Positions 5,730-43,969 of a DNA stretch of 64,000 nt are shown one piece after another. The translations under genes and the position numbers were made by a program. Below the pieces are notes generated by a model. That model saw only the letters and a list, made by a program, of their open reading frames with translations. It was not told the origin of the DNA and did not search any database. Where the stretch lies: the NCBI GenBank assembly GCA_903932535.1, contig CAIZGR010000666.1:798-64797 (forward strand). The letters run 5' to 3'. The first letter of the stretch is position 1, and every line of letters begins with the position of its first letter. Origin of the DNA: an uncultured Hyphomicrobiales bacterium. GTDB lineage: Bacteria > Pseudomonadota > Alphaproteobacteria > Rhizobiales > Beijerinckiaceae.

Positions 5730-7492
5730 TGTCGCTTCTTTCGGGCCTTGGCCTTCGTCGGCGTCTTCGTCTTCTTCGGCGCGGCCTTGGCCTTGGGGCC
5801 ATCGTAGCCGTCGGTCCGGAGCTGCGGCGGCAGCCATCCGGTCTTCTTCGCGTGGTCGGCCGCCTGCTTGGCGAGCGCGGCCTTCTTGACGTTCTTCTGC
5901 GGCTCCACGGCCATGTCGGCGAGCGCCGCCAGGGACATCGCGCCCGGCGAGTTCTCGAAGTAGTCGTCGGGCGCGAACTCCTTTACCAGCGCCGCCTGGA
6001 GAAGCTTCTGGGGCACGAAGTGAACGACCGCGGCCGCGGCCGCGTCTTCGACCTCGCCCTCCCGCGCGACCAGCATCCGGGTCGCGCTGTGGCTGCCGAG
6101 CTCGATCGAGGAGCCCACGACCTTGGCGAACAGATCGACCAGGTCCGCGGGCTTGACCTTGGCGAGCTTGCGCAGTTCGGCCGCGAAGTCGTAGTCGGCG
6201 TCTTCGTCTTCGTCTTCCGCGTCGCGGGCGCCCGCGCCTTTGTTCTCCAGGCAGACCGGAGACGAATAACTCCCGGAGCAGATCAGGCCGGCGAGCGCGA
6301 GCCGCAGCACGGTCGGGAGACCGACGTCGGCGTGCGCGACCACGGCGGCGACGGCCTTGGTCAACCCGGCGGTCAGCCGGTCGGCCAGGGCCGCCGATAT
6401 GACCGGGGGCCTCGACGGCCCGGCCTTGCGCGCGGCCGCCTTCTCGGCGGGCGTCTTCTCGATCTTGACGCTGACGCCGGGCTTCACGTAGCCGCGCTCG
6501 ATCTCGAGCTTGCCCTCGTAGTCGACGGAGACGGTGCAACCCGCGAGCGCCTTCTGCGCCGCCTTCGGGTTGGAGGTCGGCAGCCGGCGCCAGGCGTAGA
6601 GGTCCTTCGGCGCGCCCTCCTTGAGGATGGCCCAGCCCCAGCCTTCGGCCTTGAGCTCGGCGAGCTTGTCGTCGAGCTTTTTCCCGGCCATGGCCTTGAG
6701 CGCCGGCACGTTGTCGACCTGGATGGTCTCCCGGTCTTCGTCGCCGAACAGCGACGGGTTCAAGTGGTGGCCGGCGGCCTCGTAGGCCTTCGGCGTGACG
6801 AACTTCAGCAGCTTGGCGACGTCGTGGTTGCGCGAGCCGGCGATCTCCTCGGAGACGTCGTAGGCGTCGCCCGCGCGCTTCTTGAGCTTCTTGAACACGC
6901 GGACCTGGTGCTCGAGGTCCTTCGTCTGCGCGTAGGCCTCGGCCGCGTCGCCGCCGATCTCGGCGGCGCGCCAGGCCTTGCGAATCTCCGGGGCGATGGC
7001 CGCGAGCGACAATGCCTGACGAACCTCGCCGACCTTCATCGCGTTCTCGTCGGCGAGTTCTTCGACGGTGGCGCCGGCGGCGATCTGGGCGGCGAAGGCT
7101 TCGAACTCGTCGACCGGATGCAGACGGGAGCGGACCAGGTTGGAGGACAGCGAGACGTTGCGGGCCTCCTCGTCGGTCAGCGGCGCGATCTCGACCTTGA
7201 CCGGGTAGTCGCCCGTCACCTTGACGCCGTTCGCGGTCTCGCCATTTTTCGCCAGGAACATCAGCGCCTCGTACCGCTCGCCGCCGTCGACGACGAGGTA
7301 GCGGTTCTCATCGTTCGGCTTGGGCCGCACGATCATTCGCTGGTAGACGCCGCGCTTGCGGATCGAGGCCGCGTACTTGGGCTCGGCCCCGCGCCCGGTC
7401 TTGCGGACGTTGAGCGGGTCTAGCTCCAGTTGGAGCAGTTTCACGGTGAGCGGCGAGAACGTGAGGGTGGACGTCTTGAGAGCGTTGGACAT
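5726..7492 (-). CDS. Large ParB/Srx-fold N-terminal domain protein (588 aa)
   Basis: LDPLNVRK ... IVRPK ... YLVVDGGERYEAL is a ParB-box-like motif. Lys-rich C-tail. Start at ATG 7492 is preceded by GGAGAAGAACCG. The 71 upstream codons of the ORF are R/G/P junk. Confidence 0.8.
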   Translation of the reverse strand: MSNALKTSTLTFSPLTVKLLQLELDPLNVRKTGRGAEPKYAASIRKRGVYQRMIVRPKPNDENRYLVVDGGERYEALMFLAKNGETANGVKVTGDYPVKVEIAPLTDEEARNVSLSSNLVRSRLHPVDEFEAFAAQIAAGATVEELADENAMKVGEVRQALSLAAIAPEIRKAWRAAEIGGDAAEAYAQTKDLEHQVRVFKKLKKRAGDAYDVSEEIAGSRNHDVAKLLKFVTPKAYEAAGHHLNPSLFGDEDRETIQVDNVPALKAMAGKKLDDKLAELKAEGWGWAILKEGAPKDLYAWRRLPTSNPKAAQKALAGCTVSVDYEGKLEIERGYVKPGVSVKIEKTPAEKAAARKAGPSRPPVISAALADRLTAGLTKAVAAVVAHADVGLPTVLRLALAGLICSGSYSSPVCLENKGAGARDAEDEDEDADYDFAAELRKLAKVKPADLVDLFAKVVGSSIELGSHSATRMLVAREGEVEDAAAAAVVHFVPQKLLQAALVKEFAPDDYFENSPGAMSLAALADMAVEPQKNVKKAALAKQAADHAKKTGWLPPQLRTDGYDGPKAKAAPKKTKTPTKAKARKKRQ

Positions 7493-7518
7493 CGGTTCTT
7501 CTCCGGGTGGTCGTCGGG

Positions 7519-8172
7519 TTATCCGCCGAGGGCCTGGACGGCCTCGTCGCGGGCGTTCTGCAGTTCCTGGAAGGCTTCGACGGAGCCTTCGTCGGCATCG
7601 GGATGTCGTTTCTTGGAGAGCGTGCGGTAGCGGGCCTCGACCTCCTCGACCGAGGCGTCGGCCCGGGCCTCGTCGCCCTCCCCGTAGTTCAGCACGATCC
7701 ACCACGGGCGCTTCGGCCTCACCCCGTCCGGCGCCGGCAGCGCGGCGAAGCCGTCGAAGGCCCGCTGCATCATGGTGCCGCCGCCGTGGCGCTCCAGGGA
7801 ACGCATGGCGTCGATCGCCAGCGTCAGCGACCGCAGGTTGACCCCCGGCGAATCGTAGCCGTCCTGCGCCATAACCATCGCGCGGCCCTTGAGCGTGAAG
7901 TAGAGGGCGACGCCCGGCTCCTTCATAGTGTGGCGGTCGGGTTCGACGCCGGCCCGCGGCACACCGTCCACGCGCACGTCGATCGAAGAGGAGATGACGA
8001 CGTTGGTGGCACCGAGCCTCTTGAGCTCGTCCAGCACGCCGTCGCGGCCAAACGAAAACGTCGGCAGCGAACCGGAATAACCGCCGCGCCTGAATTGGGT
8101 GCCGCGCGACCGTTTGTCGGCCGCGGTGCGCGGCCAGCCGTCCGGCCAGCGCAGCGGGTAGGTTTCGGTCAT
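7519..8172 (-). CDS. J-domain (DnaJ-like) protein with uncharacterised N-terminal domain
   Basis: C-terminal ARYRTLSKKRHPDADEGS..FQELQNA contains the HPD tripeptide. Confidence 0.8.
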   Translation of the reverse strand: MTETYPLRWPDGWPRTAADKRSRGTQFRRGGYSGSLPTFSFGRDGVLDELKRLGATNVVISSSIDVRVDGVPRAGVEPDRHTMKEPGVALYFTLKGRAMVMAQDGYDSPGVNLRSLTLAIDAMRSLERHGGGTMMQRAFDGFAALPAPDGVRPKRPWWIVLNYGEGDEARADASVEEVEARYRTLSKKRHPDADEGSVEAFQELQNARDEAVQALGG

Positions 8173-32810: not shown

Positions 32811-34165
32811 TGGACACCATCAGCGAGACAGTCACGATCAAGCTCCCGACGTTTCACCCGGAGCAGGTTCGGGCGTTCAGGACGACGGCGAGCTGGGACT
32901 ACGTCGCGCTCCGGGCCGGCCGGCGCTGGGGGAAGAACGTCTACGGCGAGACGACGGCGTCGGACCACATCGCGCGCGGAATGACGGTCGGATGGTTCGC
33001 GCCGGAATATAAGCGTCTGAGCGAGACCTACGAGAACATCGCGCAGATGATCGAGCCGGTGAAGACCCGCTCGAAGCAAGGCGAGGTCATCCGCACGATG
33101 ACCGACGGTCGCGTCGACTTCTGGTCGCTCGAGGACGAGAACGCCGGGCGAGGCCGCAAGTACCACCTGATCGTCATCGACGAGGCCGCGTTCGGGAAGA
33201 AGAAGATCCTGCGCGAGACGTGGGAGCGGTCGATCAAGCCGACCCTCGTCGACTACGCCGGCCGCGCGCTCGTGATGTCGAACACGAACGGGATCGACCC
33301 CGACGACTTTTTCTATTCGATATGCCACGACCCGTTGCTCGGCTTCCGCCAGTTCCACGCGCCGACGCGGAGCAACCCGTTCCTCCCGCTTCGGAAGCCG
33401 ACCGAGCCGTTCGAGCTCTGGGTCGCTCGCCGGCGCGCCTATTTCGACCGGCTGCGGGCCGACACGCCGCCGCTGGTCTACGAGCAGGAATACAAAGCGG
33501 AGTTCGTCGATTGGTCGGGGGCCTCGTTCTTCGCGCTCGACACGCTGCTGGTCCGCGCCGGCGACGGCTCGATGCAGCCGGCCGACCTCCCGGCGAAGTG
33601 CGACGCGGTGTTCGCCGTGATCGACACCGCGACGAAGACCGGCAAGGACAACGACGGGACCGGCGTCACCTACTTCGCCTTCGTGCGCCACGGCCTGACC
33701 TACAACGTGATCGTGCTCGATTGGGACCTCCAGCAGATCGAGGGCGCGCTCCTGGAGACCTGGTTGCCGACGATCTTCCAGAACCTGGAGCACTACGCGA
33801 AGGCCTGCCGGGCCCGGTCCGGATCGGTCGGCGCCTTCATCGAGGACAAGGCCTCCGGCATGGTGCTGCTCCAGCAGGCGGCCCGGCGGGGCTGGCCGGC
33901 GACTCCCATCGATTCGAAGCTGACGAGCCTGGGCAAGGACGAGCGGGCGATCTCGGTCTCCGGCTACGTCTACCGGGGCCTGGTCAAACTCTCCCGGAAG
34001 GCCTTCGACAAGGTCGTCACCTACAAGGGCACGACCCGCAATCACCTTCGTGGCCAGGTGGTAGGTTTTCGGATAGGATCGAAGAACGAGCAGCGGGAGG
34101 ACGATCTCACGGATTGTTTTTGTTATGGTGTGGCGCTGGCTTTAGGAAATAACGAGGGTTTTTAG
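32810..34165 (+). CDS. terL: Terminase large subunit
   Basis: Walker A-like LRAGRRWGKN and Walker B HLIVIDEAA, with a C-terminal nuclease-type region containing VIDTA...DGTG. Confidence 0.9.
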   Translation: MDTISETVTIKLPTFHPEQVRAFRTTASWDYVALRAGRRWGKNVYGETTASDHIARGMTVGWFAPEYKRLSETYENIAQMIEPVKTRSKQGEVIRTMTDGRVDFWSLEDENAGRGRKYHLIVIDEAAFGKKKILRETWERSIKPTLVDYAGRALVMSNTNGIDPDDFFYSICHDPLLGFRQFHAPTRSNPFLPLRKPTEPFELWVARRRAYFDRLRADTPPLVYEQEYKAEFVDWSGASFFALDTLLVRAGDGSMQPADLPAKCDAVFAVIDTATKTGKDNDGTGVTYFAFVRHGLTYNVIVLDWDLQQIEGALLETWLPTIFQNLEHYAKACRARSGSVGAFIEDKASGMVLLQQAARRGWPATPIDSKLTSLGKDERAISVSGYVYRGLVKLSRKAFDKVVTYKGTTRNHLRGQVVGFRIGSKNEQREDDLTDCFCYGVALALGNNEGF

Positions 34166-34698
34166 TGCGACGCGATTTTTACGTCTACGCCCTATTCCGT
34201 CCAGATGGCTCGCCCTGCTACGTCGGGAAAGGCTGCGGTAGCCGCTGGCTGCATCATGAGCAAAAGGGAAAGTGCTATAATCATCGCCTCGCACGAATCA
34301 TAGCGAAGGCCGACGGCCCGCTTCCGAAGGTTAAACTTCGAGAAAAATTAACGAGCGCGGAGGCTTGTGCGATCGAGGTCGCTTTCATCGCCGCTATCGG
34401 TCGCGGTCGGCGCGGCCCTCTCGTCAACATGACGGACGGCGGCGAGGGGCTTGGCGGCGTTCCGATGACCGACGAGATTAAAGGAAAGATCGCGCGGGCC
34501 AATAAGGGCCGACGACGAGCGCGGCGCCGTGGAGATGCTGGTGGTCGAGACGATCGACGGCCGCGCGGTGTTCAAGCAGGACGCGGTCGGCAACCCGGTC
34601 CGCGTCGAGATGCGCGGCGACGTCCGGATCATCATGCCGAAGCGCGCCGGACGACCTCACTGAGCGAAGCATTTGCGGCGAGCGGAGTCAGGCTGTAG
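34165..34698 (+). CDS. GIY-YIG nuclease-domain ORF (homing-endonuclease-like insert); only about the first 114 codons look coding
   Basis: FYVYALFRPDGSPCYVGKGCGSRWLHH is a GIY-YIG pattern. 34165-34505 is visibly lower in GC. Beyond about 34505 this frame loses GC3 bias and becomes R/G-rich. Confidence 0.55.
   Translation: MRRDFYVYALFRPDGSPCYVGKGCGSRWLHHEQKGKCYNHRLARIIAKADGPLPKVKLREKLTSAEACAIEVAFIAAIGRGRRGPLVNMTDGGEGLGGVPMTDEIKGKIARANKGRRRARRRGDAGGRDDRRPRGVQAGRGRQPGPRRDARRRPDHHAEARRTTSLSEAFAASGVRL
34508..34663 (+). CDS. Alternative-frame coding segment (continuation after a frameshift, or a 42-44 aa ORF from GTG 34529 or ATG 34535)
   Basis: Strong GC3 bias. Translation is ADDERGAVEMLVVETIDGRAVFKQDAVGNPVRVEMRGDVRIIMPKRAGRPH with a stop at 34661-34663. 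Confidence 0.35.
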   Translation, partial: ADDERGAVEMLVVETIDGRAVFKQDAVGNPVRVEMRGDVRIIMPKRAGRPH

Positions 34699-36796: not shown

Positions 36797-37041
36797 TCAC
36801 CTTGAACGACGGCGACGTCCTGAGCTGCGGATGGGGCCACCCTATGTTCCGCGTTATCGGCCGGGCGGGCCCGGAGCAGCGGCTGGAGTCGCTGGGCGGC
36901 GCCGATCCGGAGAAGCTGCTTTCCCGCGAAGCGTTTTGCCCGTCGTGCCGTCGCCAGAACATGCTGGTCGAATGCGTGTCGTGCTGCGGAGGAGCGTGGC
37001 AGGCGAACGTTAACGGCGCGTGGAAAGCCGCCGATGGTTGA
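36793..37041 (+). CDS. Cys-rich hypothetical protein (82 aa)
   Basis: GTGA overlap at the start. CPSCRRQ...CVSCCG zinc-ribbon-like pattern. Confidence 0.5.
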   Translation: MITLNDGDVLSCGWGHPMFRVIGRAGPEQRLESLGGADPEKLLSREAFCPSCRRQNMLVECVSCCGGAWQANVNGAWKAADG

Positions 37042-37867
37042 CCGGACCAACTTCTACGAGGTGCTCTCGGCCGCGATCGACGACATGGCGGCGAACGGTT
37101 TCGATTCCGTGGAGCGAGTCCAGCGGTGGACCGAGGCCCTCCGGGTGGCGGCCCAGGGCGCGACCGCTCCCCCCGCCGAGCTCGAGGAGATGCTTCGCTC
37201 CGGCCTCGCGTCGGTCTACAAGCGGCTCGTCGACGACGCGGGAATCGTGCGGCTCCACCCCAACCTCGGCCGGTTCACGCTCCAGCAGGTGCGGCCGAAG
37301 CTGCGGGCCGAACTCGATCGGCGGATCATGGCGTCGGCGAACCTGATCAAGCTCAACCGCCAGCAGGCGATCGACAAGACGCTCCAGCGTTTCCAGGGCT
37401 GGGCGACCTCGATCCCCGCCGGCGGCTCGGCCGAACCCGAGAAGGCCAAGACCCGAAAGAACGTGCGCAAGGCCCTCGCGCAGCTCCCGTTCGAGGAGCG
37501 GCGCGTGCTGATCGACCAGGGCCACAAGCTCGCGGCCGCGCTCTCGCACACGCTCGCGAGCGACGGCGGCGCCATCGCCGCGCGGTGGCGGAGCCACTGG
37601 CGCCAGGCCGGCTACGACTACCGCCCCGACCACAAGGACCGCGACGAGCGGGTGTACGCGCTGCGGGACTCGTGGGCGATGCAGCGCGGCCTGATGAAGA
37701 AGGGGCCGAACCCGTTCTACGACCAGATCACCGCGGTCGGCGAGGAGCCGTTCTGCCGCTGCTACGCGGTCTGGCTCTACGCGATCAGGGATTTGCCGAA
37801 AGAGATGGTTACTGTAAAAGGGCAAGGCGCGCTCGATGAAGCGAGGGCGGCCGTCGCCGCCATGTGA
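37034..37867 (+). CDS. Head morphogenesis / minor capsid protein (SPP1 gp7 / Mu F-like, positional)
   Basis: 277 aa, after the portal. C-terminal WRSHW..AGYDYRPDHKDRDERVY..PFCRCY resembles F-like minor head proteins. Confidence 0.55.
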   Translation: MVDRTNFYEVLSAAIDDMAANGFDSVERVQRWTEALRVAAQGATAPPAELEEMLRSGLASVYKRLVDDAGIVRLHPNLGRFTLQQVRPKLRAELDRRIMASANLIKLNRQQAIDKTLQRFQGWATSIPAGGSAEPEKAKTRKNVRKALAQLPFEERRVLIDQGHKLAAALSHTLASDGGAIAARWRSHWRQAGYDYRPDHKDRDERVYALRDSWAMQRGLMKKGPNPFYDQITAVGEEPFCRCYAVWLYAIRDLPKEMVTVKGQGALDEARAAVAAM

Positions 37868-37894: not shown

Positions 37895-38395
37895 ATGCGC
37901 ACCATGAAGTCCACCCTGCTCGGTCTCGCCTTCGCCGGCGCCCTCGCGTCCGCGGTCGCGGCCGCGCCGAACCCGCCGCTGAACGGATACCCGGTCAACC
38001 AGGACGTCGGCGCCGTCATCACCAACGTGCTGCGCACGCCCGCGACCGTGACCGGCGAACCCAGCGTCCAGAACAACAACTGGCGCGGCGTCACCTGCGC
38101 CTTCCTCGGCATCGCGTCGTCCGGCTCGCCGACCGAGACCTGGAGCATCGAGGGCTTCGACGCGGCGACGGCCTCCTGGTATCAGATCGGCGCGAGCGCG
38201 ACGTTCTCCTGGACGCCCTACACCGCGTTCGCCCTCAAGACCCTGACCGTCTACCCGGGCGTGGCCGTCGGCTCGCTCTCGACCGGTAACGCCGCGCAGA
38301 GCGCGACGCTGCCCAAGCGGTGGCGGCTCAAGGACGTGGTCGGCGGCGCCGGCTTCGCGGTCACCAGCAAGGGCGGCTGCAACTACATCAACTGA
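37895..38395 (+). CDS. Secreted hypothetical protein (moron)
   Basis: Signal peptide MRTMKSTLLGLAFAGALASAVAAAP. Sits in the middle of the head module. Confidence 0.65.
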   Translation: MRTMKSTLLGLAFAGALASAVAAAPNPPLNGYPVNQDVGAVITNVLRTPATVTGEPSVQNNNWRGVTCAFLGIASSGSPTETWSIEGFDAATASWYQIGASATFSWTPYTAFALKTLTVYPGVAVGSLSTGNAAQSATLPKRWRLKDVVGGAGFAVTSKGGCNYIN

Positions 38396-38403
38396 GGTTC
38401 GCC

Positions 38404-39738
38404 GTGGGATCGACGGCGCGCTCCATCTTCGAACTGGCCGGGCGTCACGCGCCCGGCCTTTGGGCTTTCGCGGTGGTCGCGGCCTACGTCCCGTTCATCC
38501 CGTCAGGGGCCACCTACGGCCGGCACGCGGCCATGGCGCTCGGGGTCGCCGCCCTGCTGTGGCGCTCGCGAGTGGTGCCGTCCGCCGGACATTTGATGCT
38601 CGGGGGCCTCCTCGGGTGGATGGCCTGCGGATTCCTGTGGACAACTTCCGCATGGGAGACCGGCGGCGAGATCGTTTTCTGGTCGATCCTGGCCGGGTGC
38701 TTCTGCGTCGGCTTCTCGTTTTCGGACGAAGACGTCGACGATCTCTGGAAGGGGTTCGGCGCCGGCATGGTCGTGTCGGCCTGCTTCGCGATCGGTCAGA
38801 AGTTCGGGATGGAATCTCTCGGGCTCAAACCGTCATGGTTCTCGTCCGACGACCCGGTCTGGTCGATCTACGACAAGACGATATGGTCCATCTACCCGGT
38901 CGGGCAGGTCGGAATCTTCCTTAGCAAAAACATGGCGTCGGACGCCGCAGTGCTGGCGTTGATCGGCTGCTGCGCCTGGTCGCGCATTGTGTTCATACCG
39001 GCGGCCGCGGTTTCGATGTGGCTCGTCGGCGGTCGCGCCGGCGCCATGGCGCTCGGGGCCGCCGGCTTCGCCGGGCTTTGGTTCTCGTTCCCGGGGCGCC
39101 GACCGGGCCTGGCGGCGGTCGCCGCCGCCGCCGCCGTGATCGTCCTGCTGCTGGCGCATCTCGGCCTGCTCGGCCAGTTCTCGGACCGGCTTCAGATTTG
39201 GGAGCTGGTCGCGCGCAACCTGACGATCCTCGGCCACGGCGCCGGGACGTTCGCGGTGGCGGCGACCGGGATCGAGCACGCTCACAACGAGTTTTTGCAT
39301 TACGCGTTCGAGCTTGGTATCGGTTCGGTGCTCCTGTGGGGGATCTTCGCTCATGCGCTCGGAAGCGGCCCGGTTCTCGAGCGATGCGCGCTCGTCGCCA
39401 TCCTCGCCCAAAGCGTTGTGTGGTTTCCGCTGCACGCGCCCGTCCCCGCTTTCCTGGGCATGGTGCTGGCGGGCCGCCTTTGCGGTCTGCGCGATCGCGC
39501 TGCTGGCCTTGAACGGGCGCGCGGAATGGCTTGCTCACTTGGCCTATTCGACGGCGACGCTCTCGGCGTCGGAGCGATGTCCGAGGCTGACCATCTCCGA
39601 CTGCGGTCGGATGGACGCAGCGGCGCAGACCTACGTGCAACTGCTGTGGGCCGCCGAGACCTACCCGCTGGACCGGCGGATCAGGTGGGCACCGGAGCAG
39701 TTCGTGGCGCGGTATCAGGAAGTCGAACGGAGGCATAG
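38404..39738 (+). CDS. O-antigen ligase/polymerase (Wzy_C)-like polytopic membrane protein (moron); 3' part is frame-ambiguous
   Basis: Multiple TM segments and the EHAHNEFLHYAFELG motif (H.HN..L....E.G). GTG 38404. After about 39470 the GC3 bias moves to the +1 frame. Confidence 0.65.
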   Translation: MGSTARSIFELAGRHAPGLWAFAVVAAYVPFIPSGATYGRHAAMALGVAALLWRSRVVPSAGHLMLGGLLGWMACGFLWTTSAWETGGEIVFWSILAGCFCVGFSFSDEDVDDLWKGFGAGMVVSACFAIGQKFGMESLGLKPSWFSSDDPVWSIYDKTIWSIYPVGQVGIFLSKNMASDAAVLALIGCCAWSRIVFIPAAAVSMWLVGGRAGAMALGAAGFAGLWFSFPGRRPGLAAVAAAAAVIVLLLAHLGLLGQFSDRLQIWELVARNLTILGHGAGTFAVAATGIEHAHNEFLHYAFELGIGSVLLWGIFAHALGSGPVLERCALVAILAQSVVWFPLHAPVPAFLGMVLAGRLCGLRDRAAGLERARGMACSLGLFDGDALGVGAMSEADHLRLRSDGRSGADLRATAVGRRDLPAGPADQVGTGAVRGAVSGSRTEA

Positions 39739-39745
39739 CCGGTGA
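39509..39745 (+). CDS. Alternative-frame coding segment (C-terminal continuation of the ligase-like gene after a frameshift, or a separate small gene)
   Basis: High GC3 from about 39470. The stop at 39743-39745 forms a GTGA overlap with the next gene. Possible starts are TTG 39509, TTG 39539 and ATG 39611. Confidence 0.35.
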   Translation: MNGRAEWLAHLAYSTATLSASERCPRLTISDCGRMDAAAQTYVQLLWAAETYPLDRRIRWAPEQFVARYQEVERRHSR

Positions 39746-42255
39746 GCGACCGAGAAGACCGAGACGATGATGATCTCTCCGAGATGCGTCCTGACGCAGA
39801 TTGGAAGGAAGGCGATCATCCCCGCAAGGAAAACGGCGAGTTCGGGTCCGGAGGCGGTGGCGTAAAGACGTCGCCCGGGATGTCGTCAAACACCAAGTAC
39901 GTCGAAGAAAAGATCGGAAGTCACGGCGGAAAAGAAACGACGATCTATGAGCGCGAAGGGCGCGCCGGAAAGGCCTCTGAGAAGGAGGCTCGGCTACTTA
40001 ACGCGAATAAACCGACTTCGCATGGTCCGGCCGCGACTCCGAAAAAAGAGCAGGAAAAAGACCATTCCAGCAAAAAGCAGGTCTCGGCAGAGCATGTCGC
40101 GGAAAAGATAAAGGGCATGTCGGTCGAGAAGCTTCGATCCGCCTCCTCGAACAAGGACGTAGACCCTAAGATCAGGGCTCTCGTAGATCGAGAGATCACG
40201 TCTCGCCTCATCTCCGGTCGCGAAGATTCTGCCACCGTTCGCGGAATGGTCGATCAGATCGCCGGCGAATCCGGTCGGATGCACCGAAAGGACGCGGAAC
40301 CGAACCCGAAGGCCGCCTCGGTCGCTCAGGGCGGCGTCCCGAACATCAACGTCGCTAAGGCGATCGAGAAGGTCGAGAAGGACGCCATCGTCTCCTCGGC
40401 CCCGGCGGCTCCCGCGACCGCTCCGCTCGCCTCCGCGCCCGTCCCCGACGGCGCTCCGGGCCTTGCCGCGATGCCGGTCGTCGCCCGCGCCGCCGGCGTC
40501 ATGTTCGTGACGAAGGACGGCCAGGCGCTTTTCCTGAAGCGGTCCGGCACCGTAGATCACGCGGGGGAATGGTGCTTCCCCGGCGGCGTCATCGAGCAGG
40601 GCGAGACCGCCGAAGAAGCCGCCCGCCGCGAGGCCTCAGAGGAGACCGCCTGGGAGGCGGACGGCGCGTTCACGCCGTGGGTGCGCCGCACGACGACCGA
40701 GACCGGAGCGAACGGCCAGCTCAAGACCGTGGACTTCACCACGTTCCTGCAGCGGATCGACGAACCCTTCGCCCCCAAGCTCAACGACGAGCACGTCGGC
40801 CACGCGTGGGCGCCGATCGCCCAGCCGCCGGAGCCGCTGCATCCCGGGTGCCGGGTCGCGCTGGCGAAGCTCGACATGGACGAGCTGGGCCTGGCCCGCG
40901 CCATCGCCGCGGGCGAACTCTCGTCGCCGCAGCACTTCAAGAACTTCTGGCTGTTCGCGATGCGGATCACCGGGACCGGCGTGTCCTACCGCGAGGCGCT
41001 GAACGAGTTCGTCTACCGCCGGCCGGAGCACTACCTGACCGACGAGTACCTGGCGCGGTGCAACGGCCTGCCCGTGATCATGATGCACCCGAAGAACGCG
41101 ACGCTGAACAGCAAGGAGTTCGGCGACCGGGTCGTGGGCGCGATGATGCTGCCCTACGTCCAGGGGACCGAGGTTTGGGGCGTCGCGCGGATTTACGATG
41201 ACGCGGCGGCCGCGATGATGATACAAGGTCCGCTGTCGACGTCTCCGTCGGTCATCCTGCGCAAGGCCGACCACGTGAAGATGCGGCTCGAAGACGGCTC
41301 CACCTTGCTGATCGAGGGAAAGCCTGCGTTAATGGATCATCTCGCGATCTGCGAGAACGGGGTTTGGGACAAGGGCGAGGGACCGAGCGGCATTCGGTCC
41401 GAGCTCATCACAGCAGAGGAGCTAGCGATGGCGGACGACGACAAGAAGGCGCCGGAGAAGAAGGCCGACGAGGCCGAGGCCAAGAAGCCCGCCGAAGACA
41501 AGAAGCCGGACGCCGACGCGGGCACCCCGCTCGACAAGGTCCTCGCCAAGATGGACGAGCACAAGGCCGACACCGACAAGCGGCTCGACGCCATGTCGGC
41601 CCGGCAGGACGCCTTCGAGAAGAAGCCCGACGCCGCCAAGAAAGACGCCGACGACGACAAGAAGGGCGAGCCCGAAGAAGTCGCCGCGGACAAGCGCAAG
41701 GACGCCGCCGACGAAAAGAAGGGCGAGAAGGGCGACGACGACAAGAAGGCCGACGCCGCCGAGGTCGCCGCGCGCGAGATCGCCACCAGGGCGCTGTCCG
41801 AGCGGATCGAGCAGGTCGCCCGCTCGATTCCGAAGTCGATGAACGACAACGAGTTCCACGCGATGGCCGACGCTCAGGCCCGCGCCGACAACGTGTTCGT
41901 CGCCCTCGGCCAGCGGGCCCCGCGCCCGCTCGACGGCGAGAACCTCTCCGGCTACCGGCGCCGGCTCGCGAACGACCTCAAGGCGCACAGCCGCTGGAAG
42001 GACGTTCCGATAGCCGCCTTCGCCGACGACGCGGCGTTCAAGGTGGCCGAGACGCAAATCTACGCCGACGCCCAGGTGGCCGCGACGAACCCGGTTGGCC
42101 TGCCCGACGGCCACATCCGCGCCGTGACCACCCCGGACGCGACCGGGCGGCAGATCACGCAGTTCTTCGGCCAGCCGAAAGCGTGGATGCAACCTTTCGC
42201 GGGCACGCCGATGCGTCTCCTCCGGATCAACAACGGGAGCGACCGCCGCCAGTAG
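39742..42255 (+). CDS. Fusion protein: low-complexity N-region + Nudix hydrolase domain + DUF2213-type prohead protease/scaffold region + Lys/Asp/Ala-rich coiled coil
   Basis: Nudix box GGVIEQGETAEEAARREASEETA at nt 40582-40650. AMRITGTGVSYR..VYRRPEHYL..GLPVIMMHP resembles DUF2213. Lies between the head morphogenesis and capsid genes. Confidence 0.75.
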   Translation: MSDREDRDDDDLSEMRPDADWKEGDHPRKENGEFGSGGGGVKTSPGMSSNTKYVEEKIGSHGGKETTIYEREGRAGKASEKEARLLNANKPTSHGPAATPKKEQEKDHSSKKQVSAEHVAEKIKGMSVEKLRSASSNKDVDPKIRALVDREITSRLISGREDSATVRGMVDQIAGESGRMHRKDAEPNPKAASVAQGGVPNINVAKAIEKVEKDAIVSSAPAAPATAPLASAPVPDGAPGLAAMPVVARAAGVMFVTKDGQALFLKRSGTVDHAGEWCFPGGVIEQGETAEEAARREASEETAWEADGAFTPWVRRTTTETGANGQLKTVDFTTFLQRIDEPFAPKLNDEHVGHAWAPIAQPPEPLHPGCRVALAKLDMDELGLARAIAAGELSSPQHFKNFWLFAMRITGTGVSYREALNEFVYRRPEHYLTDEYLARCNGLPVIMMHPKNATLNSKEFGDRVVGAMMLPYVQGTEVWGVARIYDDAAAAMMIQGPLSTSPSVILRKADHVKMRLEDGSTLLIEGKPALMDHLAICENGVWDKGEGPSGIRSELITAEELAMADDDKKAPEKKADEAEAKKPAEDKKPDADAGTPLDKVLAKMDEHKADTDKRLDAMSARQDAFEKKPDAAKKDADDDKKGEPEEVAADKRKDAADEKKGEKGDDDKKADAAEVAAREIATRALSERIEQVARSIPKSMNDNEFHAMADAQARADNVFVALGQRAPRPLDGENLSGYRRRLANDLKAHSRWKDVPIAAFADDAAFKVAETQIYADAQVAATNPVGLPDGHIRAVTTPDATGRQITQFFGQPKAWMQPFAGTPMRLLRINNGSDRRQ

Positions 42256-42303: not shown

Positions 42304-42897
42304 ATGGCTGAAATCTCGATCAACCCGACCCTGACGACGAACGCGGCGGGTTCGTTCAACGTCTCGTCGCTCGGCTTCGTCCAGGGCGTCGCCCTCGACG
42401 ATCCGGCGATTCGCAACGCGCTCTCCGGTGGCTACCTCGACGCTGCCGAGACCGTGCCCATGTGGGGCGGCGTCGCGATCGAGGAGCTCACCGGCCTCGT
42501 CGGCGAGAGCCGCGGCAACGACATCAAGCGCGCGGTCAGCTACGCCACGCTCACGGGGTTCTCGGTGTTCAACCAGAACCACGCGGCCATCAACTCGCCG
42601 CAGAGCCCGGTCCCGCTGTCGGCCGACGGCATGCTGGTGAACTTCTACCGGCTTGGCTCCGGCGCGCGCATCCCGCTCAAGATCGACCCGGCGCTGATCA
42701 CGGCGGACGGCGAGATCATCACCCAGCAAGTGAGCTGGGACTTCGTGAACTCGATGATCGTCGCGTTCGACACGACGGCCCTGAACATCCGCCTCCTCGA
42801 GGTCGCGGTCGGCAATTCCATGACGGTCTCCTACGACGCCGGCACGGGCTTCGCCACCTGGGACAAGGGCGGCGCCGTCGCGATCGCCCTCGTCTGA
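42304..42897 (+). CDS. Capsid-associated structural protein (197 aa)
   Basis: Positioned between the scaffold and the major capsid gene. In ORF track. Confidence 0.6.
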   Translation: MAEISINPTLTTNAAGSFNVSSLGFVQGVALDDPAIRNALSGGYLDAAETVPMWGGVAIEELTGLVGESRGNDIKRAVSYATLTGFSVFNQNHAAINSPQSPVPLSADGMLVNFYRLGSGARIPLKIDPALITADGEIITQQVSWDFVNSMIVAFDTTALNIRLLEVAVGNSMTVSYDAGTGFATWDKGGAVAIALV

Positions 42898-42943: not shown

Positions 42944-43969
42944 ATGGCCTTGATCACCCCGTCCTACGTTACGGTGAACCCGCACTACATGGAGCCGGGC
43001 GTCATCCTGCCGTACTCGCAGGCCTCCGGCGCCTTCGAGACCATCGCCCAGGGGCAGCCGCTGCCGCGGCTCTCCGACGGCGACCTCTACGTCTACATGA
43101 AGAAGATGGACGTCCGGACCAAGGTCGCGTCCGGCCAGGCCGCCTACAACAGCCTGCCGTCGATCTCGGTCATCCTGTCGATGATCTCGACCCCGACTTA
43201 CCTGCTGCGCGTGCGCGGGGAGTACGACCACCACGACACCGCGGCGGCGAACCGCTGGGGCGTGTCCATCGTCGAGGCGCAGCGCCTCGGCATGCGGCAG
43301 GGCCACTTCCAGCTCGCGCGCAACGGCCTGCTGTACGGGTTCAACCCGGCCGGCGGCGAGGGCCTGGTCAACGCCAACGGCGCGACGGCGCTCACGCTGC
43401 CGCCCGACACCAACGGCAACACCACGGTCGTGACCTACGACAACGGCCAGATGGGCCAGTTCATCCTCCAGCAGCTCTCGGCGCTGAAGACCAGGACGAA
43501 CCAGCTCGGCATCGGCCGCAAGTTTACGATCCTCGGCCCGCAGCGCGTGCTCGGCGGCTGGGAATACCAGGACATCGTCCAGGTGACGCAGTTCCAGCGC
43601 GAGGGCGCCGGCTCGGTTCCGGTCGCCGGCATGGTGAAGGAAGTCATCGCGATGAACGGCGACGAGATCGCCTGGGTCTACGACGACACGCTGATCGGCC
43701 AGGGCGACGGCGGGACCGACCTCGTCATCATCACGATGCCGGAGGTCAAGAAGCCCGCCGGGTCGATGATCAACACCAACGAGTTCGCCAAGCTCGAACC
43801 CGGCATCGAAGCCTGCTCGCTGATGTACTGCGACATGGCCGCGCCGCGCGAGATCCCGACGCCGCTCGCCGGCGGCGCGATCGACGTGCTCTCCGAGTGG
43901 CGGATCACGAGCGGCTGGGGCGTTCGCCCCGAAAGCATCTCGCTGATCTCGATGCCATACTCGGCCTGA
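42944..43969 (+). CDS. Major capsid protein
   Basis: 341 aa. Position and strong RBS (GAAGGAA). DUF2184-like companion of DUF2213. Confidence 0.7.
   Translation: MALITPSYVTVNPHYMEPGVILPYSQASGAFETIAQGQPLPRLSDGDLYVYMKKMDVRTKVASGQAAYNSLPSISVILSMISTPTYLLRVRGEYDHHDTAAANRWGVSIVEAQRLGMRQGHFQLARNGLLYGFNPAGGEGLVNANGATALTLPPDTNGNTTVVTYDNGQMGQFILQQLSALKTRTNQLGIGRKFTILGPQRVLGGWEYQDIVQVTQFQREGAGSVPVAGMVKEVIAMNGDEIAWVYDDTLIGQGDGGTDLVIITMPEVKKPAGSMINTNEFAKLEPGIEACSLMYCDMAAPREIPTPLAGGAIDVLSEWRITSGWGVRPESISLISMPYSA

Follow-up and report, generated by a model that had tools for sequence, protein, structure and literature searches.

Why should a gene lying among phage head-assembly genes encode a Nudix hydrolase, and where would such an enzyme act? 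The question is raised by 64,000 nucleotides (nt) of DNA from an uncultured Hyphomicrobiales bacterium (contig CAIZGR010000666.1; hereafter the window), in which an open reading frame (ORF) of 837 amino acids (aa) at 39742..42255 on the forward (+) strand stands between head-morphogenesis and major capsid genes. An earlier note, made from the DNA letters alone, had read this ORF as a Nudix domain fused in frame to a capsid scaffold/protease protein that would be packaged, and possibly ejected with the DNA. The fusion gene, in our reading, most likely encodes a head-assembly polyprotein in which a swapped cassette, a linker particular to a subgroup of relatives, a Nudix domain and a protease of predicted assemblin fold are followed by a charged stretch of helices and a C-terminal domain.

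A single reading frame with an exchanged front

The ORF is unbroken and starts with GTG, 8 nt downstream of a Shine-Dalgarno sequence (GGAGG, 39729..39733, +) that lies just before the TAG stop codon of the upstream gene (39736-39738). This spacing suggests that the fusion gene is translationally coupled to its neighbour. We modelled the protein with AlphaFold2 from an alignment of 115 sequences, mostly about 50% identical overall. Residues 1-111 are disordered in the model, residues 116-174 form helices, with a predicted local distance difference test score (pLDDT) of about 91 over residues 121-150, and residues 176-240 are mostly of low confidence. The Nudix and DUF2213 domains then make one continuous block with pLDDT above 90 (aa 245-555), followed by long helices at 596-626 and 667-695 and by a folded domain at about 700-830. 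The anatomy originally proposed, namely a foreign front of low GC content joined to a Nudix domain whose box is intact and to a protease/scaffold part, is borne out by profiles, alignment and GC content at third codon positions (GC3).

The front is, judging from DNA alignments, an exchanged cassette (aa 3-164; 39749..40232, +). In two close relatives (loci L089 and L090), DNA homology to the window runs from the head-morphogenesis gene to 39745-39748, breaks off and resumes at 40233-40234; close relatives each have a different in-frame cassette at the same spot, with the break directly behind the start codon. Over residues 1-170, total GC is 0.55-0.57 and GC3 0.60-0.66, against a GC3 of 0.85-0.95 in the remainder of the ORF and of 0.90-0.98 in the genes for terminase, portal, head morphogenesis, the 197-aa protein and capsid. 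The lower-GC DNA reported earlier, from 39742 to about 40350, is real, and its exact limits are now set by the two relatives at 39749-40232. The description of this region as low-complexity captured its foreign, low-GC character but undersold it: it holds a leader motif and predicted helices, and it is a swapped cassette rather than filler. Front-region searches gave no Pfam match at E up to 1, no tblastn match for aa 1-175 in GenBank phages and, among PHROGs, a borderline match to phrog_30637 (E=1e-3) on the leader motif only. Even the protein itself was missing from a large-database search with aa 1-245, which came back empty and is hence an unreliable negative. Between the cassette and the Nudix domain, the linker (aa 163-245, SATVRGMVDQIAGESGRMHRKDAEPNPKAASVAQGG...; 40228..40476, +) is conserved in the closest subgroup only and is mostly disordered or of low confidence; it contains a candidate cleavage motif, R182-K-D-A.

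Could the 837-aa ORF nevertheless be an annotation artefact, with a true start near Met244 or Met254 and 243 upstream codons that are untranslated, a separate gene or part of a chimera? Such an error would suit the foreign base composition of the 5' part, as well as the length of most relatives, which are about 600 aa long and begin just 5' of the Nudix domain. However, frame 0 has no stop across 39742-40476, 245 codons of 56% GC DNA in which the remaining + strand frames are interrupted by 5 and by 9 stops, and no site comparable to the GGAGG ahead of the GTG is found upstream of Met244 or Met254. The identical protein occurs on at least five metagenomic contigs, the two fetched loci representing two ENA samples, and metagenome gene callers independently give the same 837-aa product. 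The different cassettes of close relatives are all in frame and break exactly at the start codon, and the cassette of the window carries a conserved protein-level motif. Because of the open frame, the Shine-Dalgarno sequence and the recurrence of the identical protein on several contigs, an assembly chimera or a missed stop is very unlikely. The single ORF of the earlier note has thus withstood the possibility of two genes or a misassembly, and a misplaced start has, in our view, only the slimmest of chances.

The Nudix domain and the protease core

The Nudix domain (aa 246-372; 40477..40857, +) is modelled with pLDDT above 90 as a minimal MutT-like fold and matches Pfam NUDIX (PF00293) over aa 249-369 (E=6.2e-18; 65.5 bits for a cut-off of 21.1). 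The complete Nudix box claimed at the outset (aa 281-303 as quoted then) is confirmed at its stated coordinates. It spans aa 281-304 (40582..40653, +) and reads, in canonical register from G282, G282-x5-E288-x7-R296-E297-A-x-E300-E301-x-A303-W304, the sole departure from GX5EX7REUXEEXGU being an Ala for the final Gly. That Ala might be taken as the mark of a catalytically dead domain, recruited to the head core as a structural or binding module, and non-catalytic Nudix domains such as NrtR-type sensors do exist (Iyer, Burroughs, Anantharaman and Aravind 2022, PMC9503650). However, G282 and the metal-binding and catalytic positions E288, R296, E297, E300 and E301 are invariant across the 115 aligned sequences in spite of their overall divergence, and the dead boxes that the earlier note had envisaged in homologues were not seen. 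As the box residues are invariant, the domain is apparently catalytically competent, and a dead module seems to us highly improbable.

Foldseek comparison with Nudix hydrolases of the PDB gave E-values around 1e-8 and target-normalised template-modelling (TM) scores of up to 0.87, and MutT, nucleoside triphosphatase (NTPase), NudI, RppH, diadenosine tetraphosphate (Ap4A), RenU and DR1025 types all score about alike in sequence, profile and fold searches. The structural comparison once proposed for subclassifying the domain therefore confirmed the Nudix fold but yielded no subclass, and since none can be assigned, the substrates first put forward, messengers related to nicotinamide adenine dinucleotide (NAD) or ADP-ribose (ADPR) and RNA caps, are guesses. 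Some Nudix subfamilies have motifs of their own: a Pro about 16 residues past the box for ADPR, SQPWPFPxS past the box for NADH, and LLTxR[SA]x3Rx3Gx3FPGG ahead of the box for coenzyme A (CoA) pyrophosphatases. After the box of the window protein (EADGAFTPWVRRTTTETG), a Pro is found at +8 and SQPWPFP is absent, so the ADPR and NADH motifs are both missing; before the box (LFLKRSGTVDHAGEWCFPGG), Asp and Glu stand where the CoA motif wants Arg and Gly.

PMC9503650 describes fusions of this type and puts their Nudix domains in a T4 NudE-like clade; the examples of its Figure 5a may or may not be members of the present family. T4 NudE matches phrog_1185 (E=5e-74). The best profile for the window domain is phrog_1198 (1e-18), phrog_1185 reaching just 1.7e-8 over the box region, and BLASTP aligns the domain with T4 NudE at 35% identity over 62 aa. 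By best profile match, the window domain thus falls outside the NudE-like clade (phrog_1185) and is nearer phrog_1198.

The DUF2213 core (aa 375-556; 40864..41409, +) follows with a predicted fold of assemblin-like prohead serine proteases. The DUF2213-like region recognised earlier corresponds to a real match, although the window protein itself remains below threshold (PF09979, aa 423-540; 18.1 bits for a gathering threshold of 22); the family link holds because homologous relatives (P0036, P0015, P0255 and P0159) pass it with 26-29 bits. Modelled alone, aa 375-573 have a pLDDT of 92. The 50 best Foldseek matches of the core in the PDB are all T4 gp21 (5jbl) or herpesvirus proteases, the gp21 match having a best E of 2.7e-3, a probability of 1.0 and TM-scores of 0.42-0.48, and its BFVD matches include annotated prohead proteases and DUF2213 proteins. 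His449 (41086-41088), Ser499/Ser501 (41236-41244), Asp532-His533 (41335-41340) and GVWDK540-544 are invariant in the relatives. His449 is found within MHP, to be compared with NHP around His85 of T4 gp21, and the spacing of the putative catalytic residues is compatible. The gene also stands where prohead protease genes do, among the head genes and ahead of the one for the capsid protein. Together, these data give good but not complete support to an assemblin-like prohead serine protease with His449, Ser499/501 and His533 as putative catalytic residues.

A predicted nested scaffold, candidate cleavage sites and possible delivery

The protease domain is directly followed by a linker of generally poor conservation, in which an internal AGGAG (41417-41421) and, after 6 nt, the ATG of Met563 (41428-41430) together make a predicted nested in-frame start (41417..41430, +). 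The predicted product, of 275 aa (41428..42255, +), would consist of a charged region rich in Lys, Asp, Ala and Glu with long helices (aa 563-700) and of the C-terminal domain (aa 701-837), which is folded and conserved. At least 90% of sequences keep Met563. The phages Chronis, PdC23 and Rac-SA53 have an equivalent Met with GAGG or AGGTG about 8 nt 5', and the amino acids encoded there differ. We surveyed 77 ORFs, from 76 IMG/VR loci and the window: 74 of them have a Met approximately 21 residues past GVWDK, and a Shine-Dalgarno core is present 5-16 nt upstream of that Met in 45 of 49 distinct contexts, compared with 20% at other codons of the same ORFs. Because the Met and its Shine-Dalgarno site are conserved across ORFs, the sequences predict a second product, a nested scaffold protein started at Met563.

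Such an arrangement has well-known counterparts. In lambda (gpC/Nu3) and Mu (gpI/gpZ), a protease and then a scaffold are encoded in one frame, with an internal in-frame start that gives the shorter scaffold; in P2, an N-terminal protease fragment of gpO (gpO*) stays in the capsid. The protease-scaffold gene of lambda, Mu and P2 sits between portal/head-morphogenesis and capsid genes. The window gene resembles lambda C/Nu3 and Mu I/Z in its protease-then-scaffold frame and its predicted nested start, a likeness of layout. Unlike the window protein, none of lambda gpC, Mu gpI and P2 gpO is known to have an enzyme domain ahead of the protease, and the protease of lambda gpC is of the ClpP/S49 type rather than the assemblin type.

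The variable scaffold region contains near-invariant Asp residues. At six of these sites, K/R is found at position -2 in 94-100% of sequences, and at a seventh (D716) in 90%; A/S is found at +1 in 67-95% at the same six sites. In the window protein, (K/R)-x-D-(A/S) occurs ten times in total, seven times within aa 561-700 (P<0.0005 by shuffling) and three times within aa 1-245 (P=0.017), at aa 16-19 where the leader motif begins, at 160-163 on the 3' border of the cassette, and at 182-185. No copy is present in its folded Nudix-protease block or its C-terminal domain. From this pattern of conservation and placement, (K/R)-x-D-(A/S) probably represents the candidate cleavage site of the protease. 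RGD-like strings at the module borders of one relative (P0015) were also considered as internal ribosome-binding sites and rejected, as the next Met is mostly too distant; a peptide-level motif fits better.

We find it rather probable that the gene produces a protease-scaffold polyprotein together with a nested scaffold, and that a Nudix-protease piece is packaged and delivered with the DNA to hydrolyse a nucleoside-diphosphate-X (NDP-X) compound early in infection. The nested 275-aa protein would be the abundant scaffold and form the procapsid core, which a few full-length molecules would join through the shared C-terminal part, by analogy with lambda gpC/Nu3, Mu gpI/gpZ and P2. The protease would then cut at the repeated (K/R)-x-D-(A/S) motifs, chopping up the scaffold region and freeing the front cassette. 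The Nudix-protease block, of approximately 45 kDa, would stay in one piece, much as P2 gpO* remains in the capsid, because there is neither a cleavage motif nor a linker between the two domains and they are modelled confidently as one block. This piece and the product of the cassette would be retained in the full head and would reach, along with the DNA, the next host, where the Nudix domain would act. Our best guess for its substrate is an NAD/ADP-ribose-related compound, because some relatives have an ADP-ribosyltransferase in the same polypeptide. That the Nudix enzyme is packaged and possibly ejected is plausible by analogy, since an ADP-ribosyltransferase, a GNAT domain, a zeta-toxin kinase and a topoisomerase IB share its position in relatives or in neighbouring genes. 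Enzymes carried in the head act before phage genes are expressed, which makes them prime candidates against host defences based on nucleotide signals or NAD.

Alternatively, the Nudix domain might serve only in the producing cell or the procapsid, where it would gate the protease by sensing or hydrolysing a ligand, or act in the late cytoplasm, before being degraded or expelled, so that nothing would be delivered. The continuity of the confidently modelled block (aa 245-555), with its conserved junction and no candidate cleavage motif between the domains, is readily understood in this way, and T4 gp21 largely digests itself and leaves the head. Moreover, the fusion is the majority state of the protease clade, more like a built-in function than an optional accessory. 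The domain is dispensable for assembly, however, being absent from 41 of the best 150 representatives of the family, from Rac-SA53 and from pPE4, and the same N-terminal position or leader carries host-directed effectors (ADP-ribosyltransferase, zeta-toxin kinase and topoisomerase IB). On balance we think that a purely assembly-related role is unlikely, if far from negligible.

A number of points weigh against the delivery of a Nudix-protease piece made in this manner. Its rigid, highly conserved, linker-less block suits a role in assembly as well as it does delivery, and the Nudix fold, equally near MutT, NTP, Ap4A and RppH types, points to no substrate. As for the protease, hhalign detects no sequence similarity between the core and T4 gp21 (probability 0.2), so that the assignment rests on fold and conserved residues; the Foldseek E-values for that fold are modest and the TM-scores are 0.4-0.5. 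Gly, Glu and Asp codons can yield Shine-Dalgarno-like strings and many of the surveyed loci are mutually related, and the cleavage motif is deduced from conservation and placement alone. Finally, literature searches on DUF2213, on Chronis, PdC23 and the Yersinia phages, and on Nudix domains with prohead proteases or anti-defence found no virion proteomics, activity assay or cleavage mapping for any member of the family. Mention of a Nudix domain is also absent from the phi24B cryo-electron microscopy preprint.

The front cassette has a further feature that may bear on loading. A leader motif (aa 16-40, RPDADWKEGDHPRKENGEFGSGGGG; 39787..39861, +), in single copy in the window, corresponds to the consensus (R/K)xD(A/S)x(F/W)xExDHPRxxDGKFGSGGG and is found in 10 of 259 collected related proteins; it was recovered only by local searches against fetched proteins and loci. 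The same leader opens ORFs of related IMG/VR head modules that encode an ADP-ribosyltransferase, a topoisomerase IB, a zeta-toxin-like kinase or HExxH-containing proteins, and it likewise heads a portal fusion and Nudix-less protease fusions in related IMG/VR phages. The HPR motif has 16 distinct occurrences, two of them chance matches; (K/R)-x-D-(A/S) precedes it in 10 and a looser variant in several others. A second recurrent leader, MPLxxGSSxxxISxNIxxExxAGKxxKQAxAIA, was found in 11 proteins. In two relatives (P0031 and P0182), the Nudix domain is split by an insertion that opens with DHPRxxDGKFGSGGG, the one in P0182 containing a GNAT acetyltransferase; a leader-plus-domain cassette can therefore land inside a domain and not just at the N-terminus.

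In T4, the internal proteins (IPI-III and Alt) have an N-terminal capsid-targeting sequence that is removed by gp21, and they stay in the head and are injected. The cleavage motif of gp21 is (L/I)-x-E, and the T4 scaffold contains many copies of a short motif at which it is cut. The window protein is similar in that it has a short leader that ends at a candidate protease site, a predicted protease of the same fold and repeated candidate sites in its scaffold region. It differs in that the T4 internal proteins are separate from the protease, in the motif itself, (L/I)-x-E as opposed to the candidate (K/R)-x-D-(A/S), and in the role of the leader, here deduced. It is tempting to speculate that the leader is a common capsid-loading and processing signal, akin to the T4 capsid-targeting sequence, which would mark exchangeable injected effectors and be read by a DUF2213/assemblin protease cutting at (K/R)-x-D-(A/S); we advance this idea tentatively and regard it as doubtful for now. 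Under this hypothesis, the effectors may include the Nudix domain, the ADP-ribosyltransferase, the zeta-toxin kinase, the topoisomerase IB, the metallopeptidase-like proteins and GNAT, encoded as separate head-module genes or as fusions to portal or protease. If it is correct, sequence would allow injected effectors to be predicted over hundreds of phages, and phage heads could be designed to take up foreign proteins.

Family spread, earlier descriptions and neighbouring genes

The earlier note knew of no described example of such a fusion, which proved wrong. PHROG 6216, of "unknown function", aligns along its whole length with aa 250-830 (E=2e-152), and cultured phages that carry the fusion include Klebsiella vB_Kpn_Chronis (gp4), RothC/RothD, Pantoea PdC23 (gp04), five Yersinia vB_YenM phages and Shewanella vB_Sb_QDWS, in which it is annotated as a NUDIX hydrolase, a hypothetical protein or a glycosyl transferase. 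Relatives of the protease core are encoded at no fewer than 581 IMG/VR loci. The core has 828 representatives at 50% identity; in the best 150 of these, 101 have a Nudix domain and 41 have none, and 15 are extended by another 40 aa or more. In print, section 3.5.2 of PMC9503650 describes phage Nudix domains that are fused to a capsid-processing serine peptidase and are probably packaged and injected. The fusion is thus widespread and previously stated in the literature, neither rare nor unnoticed; what sets the window protein apart from most members is the swapped cassette at its front. In the literature examined, the nested start, the leader motif and the candidate cleavage motif were not found described for this family, and these three elements offer concrete handles for experiments. 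With hundreds of clusters in the family, its cultured members in Klebsiella, Pantoea, Yersinia and Shewanella provide an easy experimental entry.

The cultured members of PHROG 6216 share with the window protein the Nudix domain, the DUF2213 protease, the charged region and the C-terminal domain, at 42-48% identity over aa 245-835. They differ from it in their length of 538-554 aa, without the 245-aa front extension, and in lacking the two extra upstream genes. In the two records inspected, Chronis and PdC23, the gene order is terminase, portal, head-morphogenesis, fusion gene, phrog_6268 homologue and capsid; these phages resemble the window both in the slot of the fusion gene, from head-morphogenesis to capsid, and in the conserved Met with its Shine-Dalgarno sequence. 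The phrog_6268 homologue is annotated as endosialidase or hypothetical in the phage records inspected. The same gene order is found in Rac-SA53, with a Nudix-less homologue. In that Escherichia phage (L003; 222-1362 and 6007-7299), the homologue bears the annotation TolA protein and a note, 'nudix', and a heat-labile enterotoxin IIa, an ADP-ribosyltransferase, is encoded just upstream of the terminase genes, a neighbourhood also remarked on in PMC9503650.

The survey of relatives for N-terminal enzymatic fusions that the earlier note had recommended did uncover several. On the N-terminal side we found an ADP-ribosyltransferase (P0045 and P0245), a GNAT domain inside the Nudix domain (P0182) and DUF5710 (P0159). 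A 1567-aa relative (P0255) has about 1000 residues ahead of its Nudix-protease part that match ribonucleotide reductase (RNR) alpha and B12-RNR insertion domains; it could be a true giant fusion or an artefact of gene calling or read-through.

Iyer et al. 2017 (PMC5512222) describe assemblin-like peptidases at the C-termini of polyvalent proteins, with effector domains on the N-terminal side, and deduce packaging. Polyvalent proteins combine at least two disparate effector domains in one virion-associated polypeptide. The window protein has one clear enzyme, the Nudix domain, and the cassette N-terminal to its predicted peptidase, and relatives add an ADP-ribosyltransferase or GNAT. Pfam scans of the window protein and its relatives gave no match to large polyvalent-protein-associated domains. 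Temperate phages also have MuF polymorphic toxins (Jamet et al. 2017, PMC5576092), in which a head-internal domain is combined with exchangeable enzyme or toxin domains that are presumably delivered along with the DNA. There, a MuF domain carries the toxin on its C-terminal side, unlike the additions of the window protein, which are N-terminal to the protease-scaffold. Membership of that group was considered and rejected, as there is no MuF domain in the fusion polypeptide and the head-morphogenesis protein is separate (37034-37867).

The assignment of the ORF to the scaffold/protease slot between the head-morphogenesis and major capsid genes was right as to the slot, but extra genes intervene on either side. 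The head-morphogenesis gene (37034..37867, +) belongs to phrog_324, which we take to be the SPP1 gp7/Mu F type family, and is separated from the fusion ORF by two additional genes (37895-38395 and 38404-39738). On the other side, a 197-aa gene of phrog_6268 (42304..42897, +) precedes the major capsid gene (42944..43969, +), which matches phrog_6671 (E=1e-144) and, weakly, PF09950.

The second of the additional genes (38404-39738, +), which directly precedes the fusion gene and seems to be coupled to it in translation, encodes a 444-aa protein with a multi-pass membrane-like sequence. Its GC3 of 0.78 is below that of neighbouring genes. Only 13 homologues were found, nearly all within the same small phage subgroup, and the most distant of them has PF04932 (Wzy_C, O-antigen ligase/polymerase-like). 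This may be a lysogenic-conversion gene. The other additional gene, between the head-morphogenesis and membrane-protein genes (37895-38395, +), encodes 166 aa with a signal-peptide-like N-terminus (MRTMKSTLLGLAFAGALASAVAAAP...) and has no match in Pfam, PHROG or NCBIfam; the close relatives L089 and L090 have genes of 167 and 170 aa at its position.

Further upstream, between the genes for the terminase large subunit and the portal, a 177-aa ORF (34165-34698, +) has a GIY-YIG-like start (FYVYALFRPDGSPCYVGKG) and a weak Pfam match to LEM-3-like GIY-YIG (E=0.029). Judging from these features, it is probably a homing endonuclease inserted into the packaging module. In L090, the head-morphogenesis gene (599-2239) encodes 546 aa with an intein splicing domain (PF14890), and two ORFs, of 183 and 128 aa, are called in the capsid slot (7004-8037), a sign of another insertion or of a disruption there.

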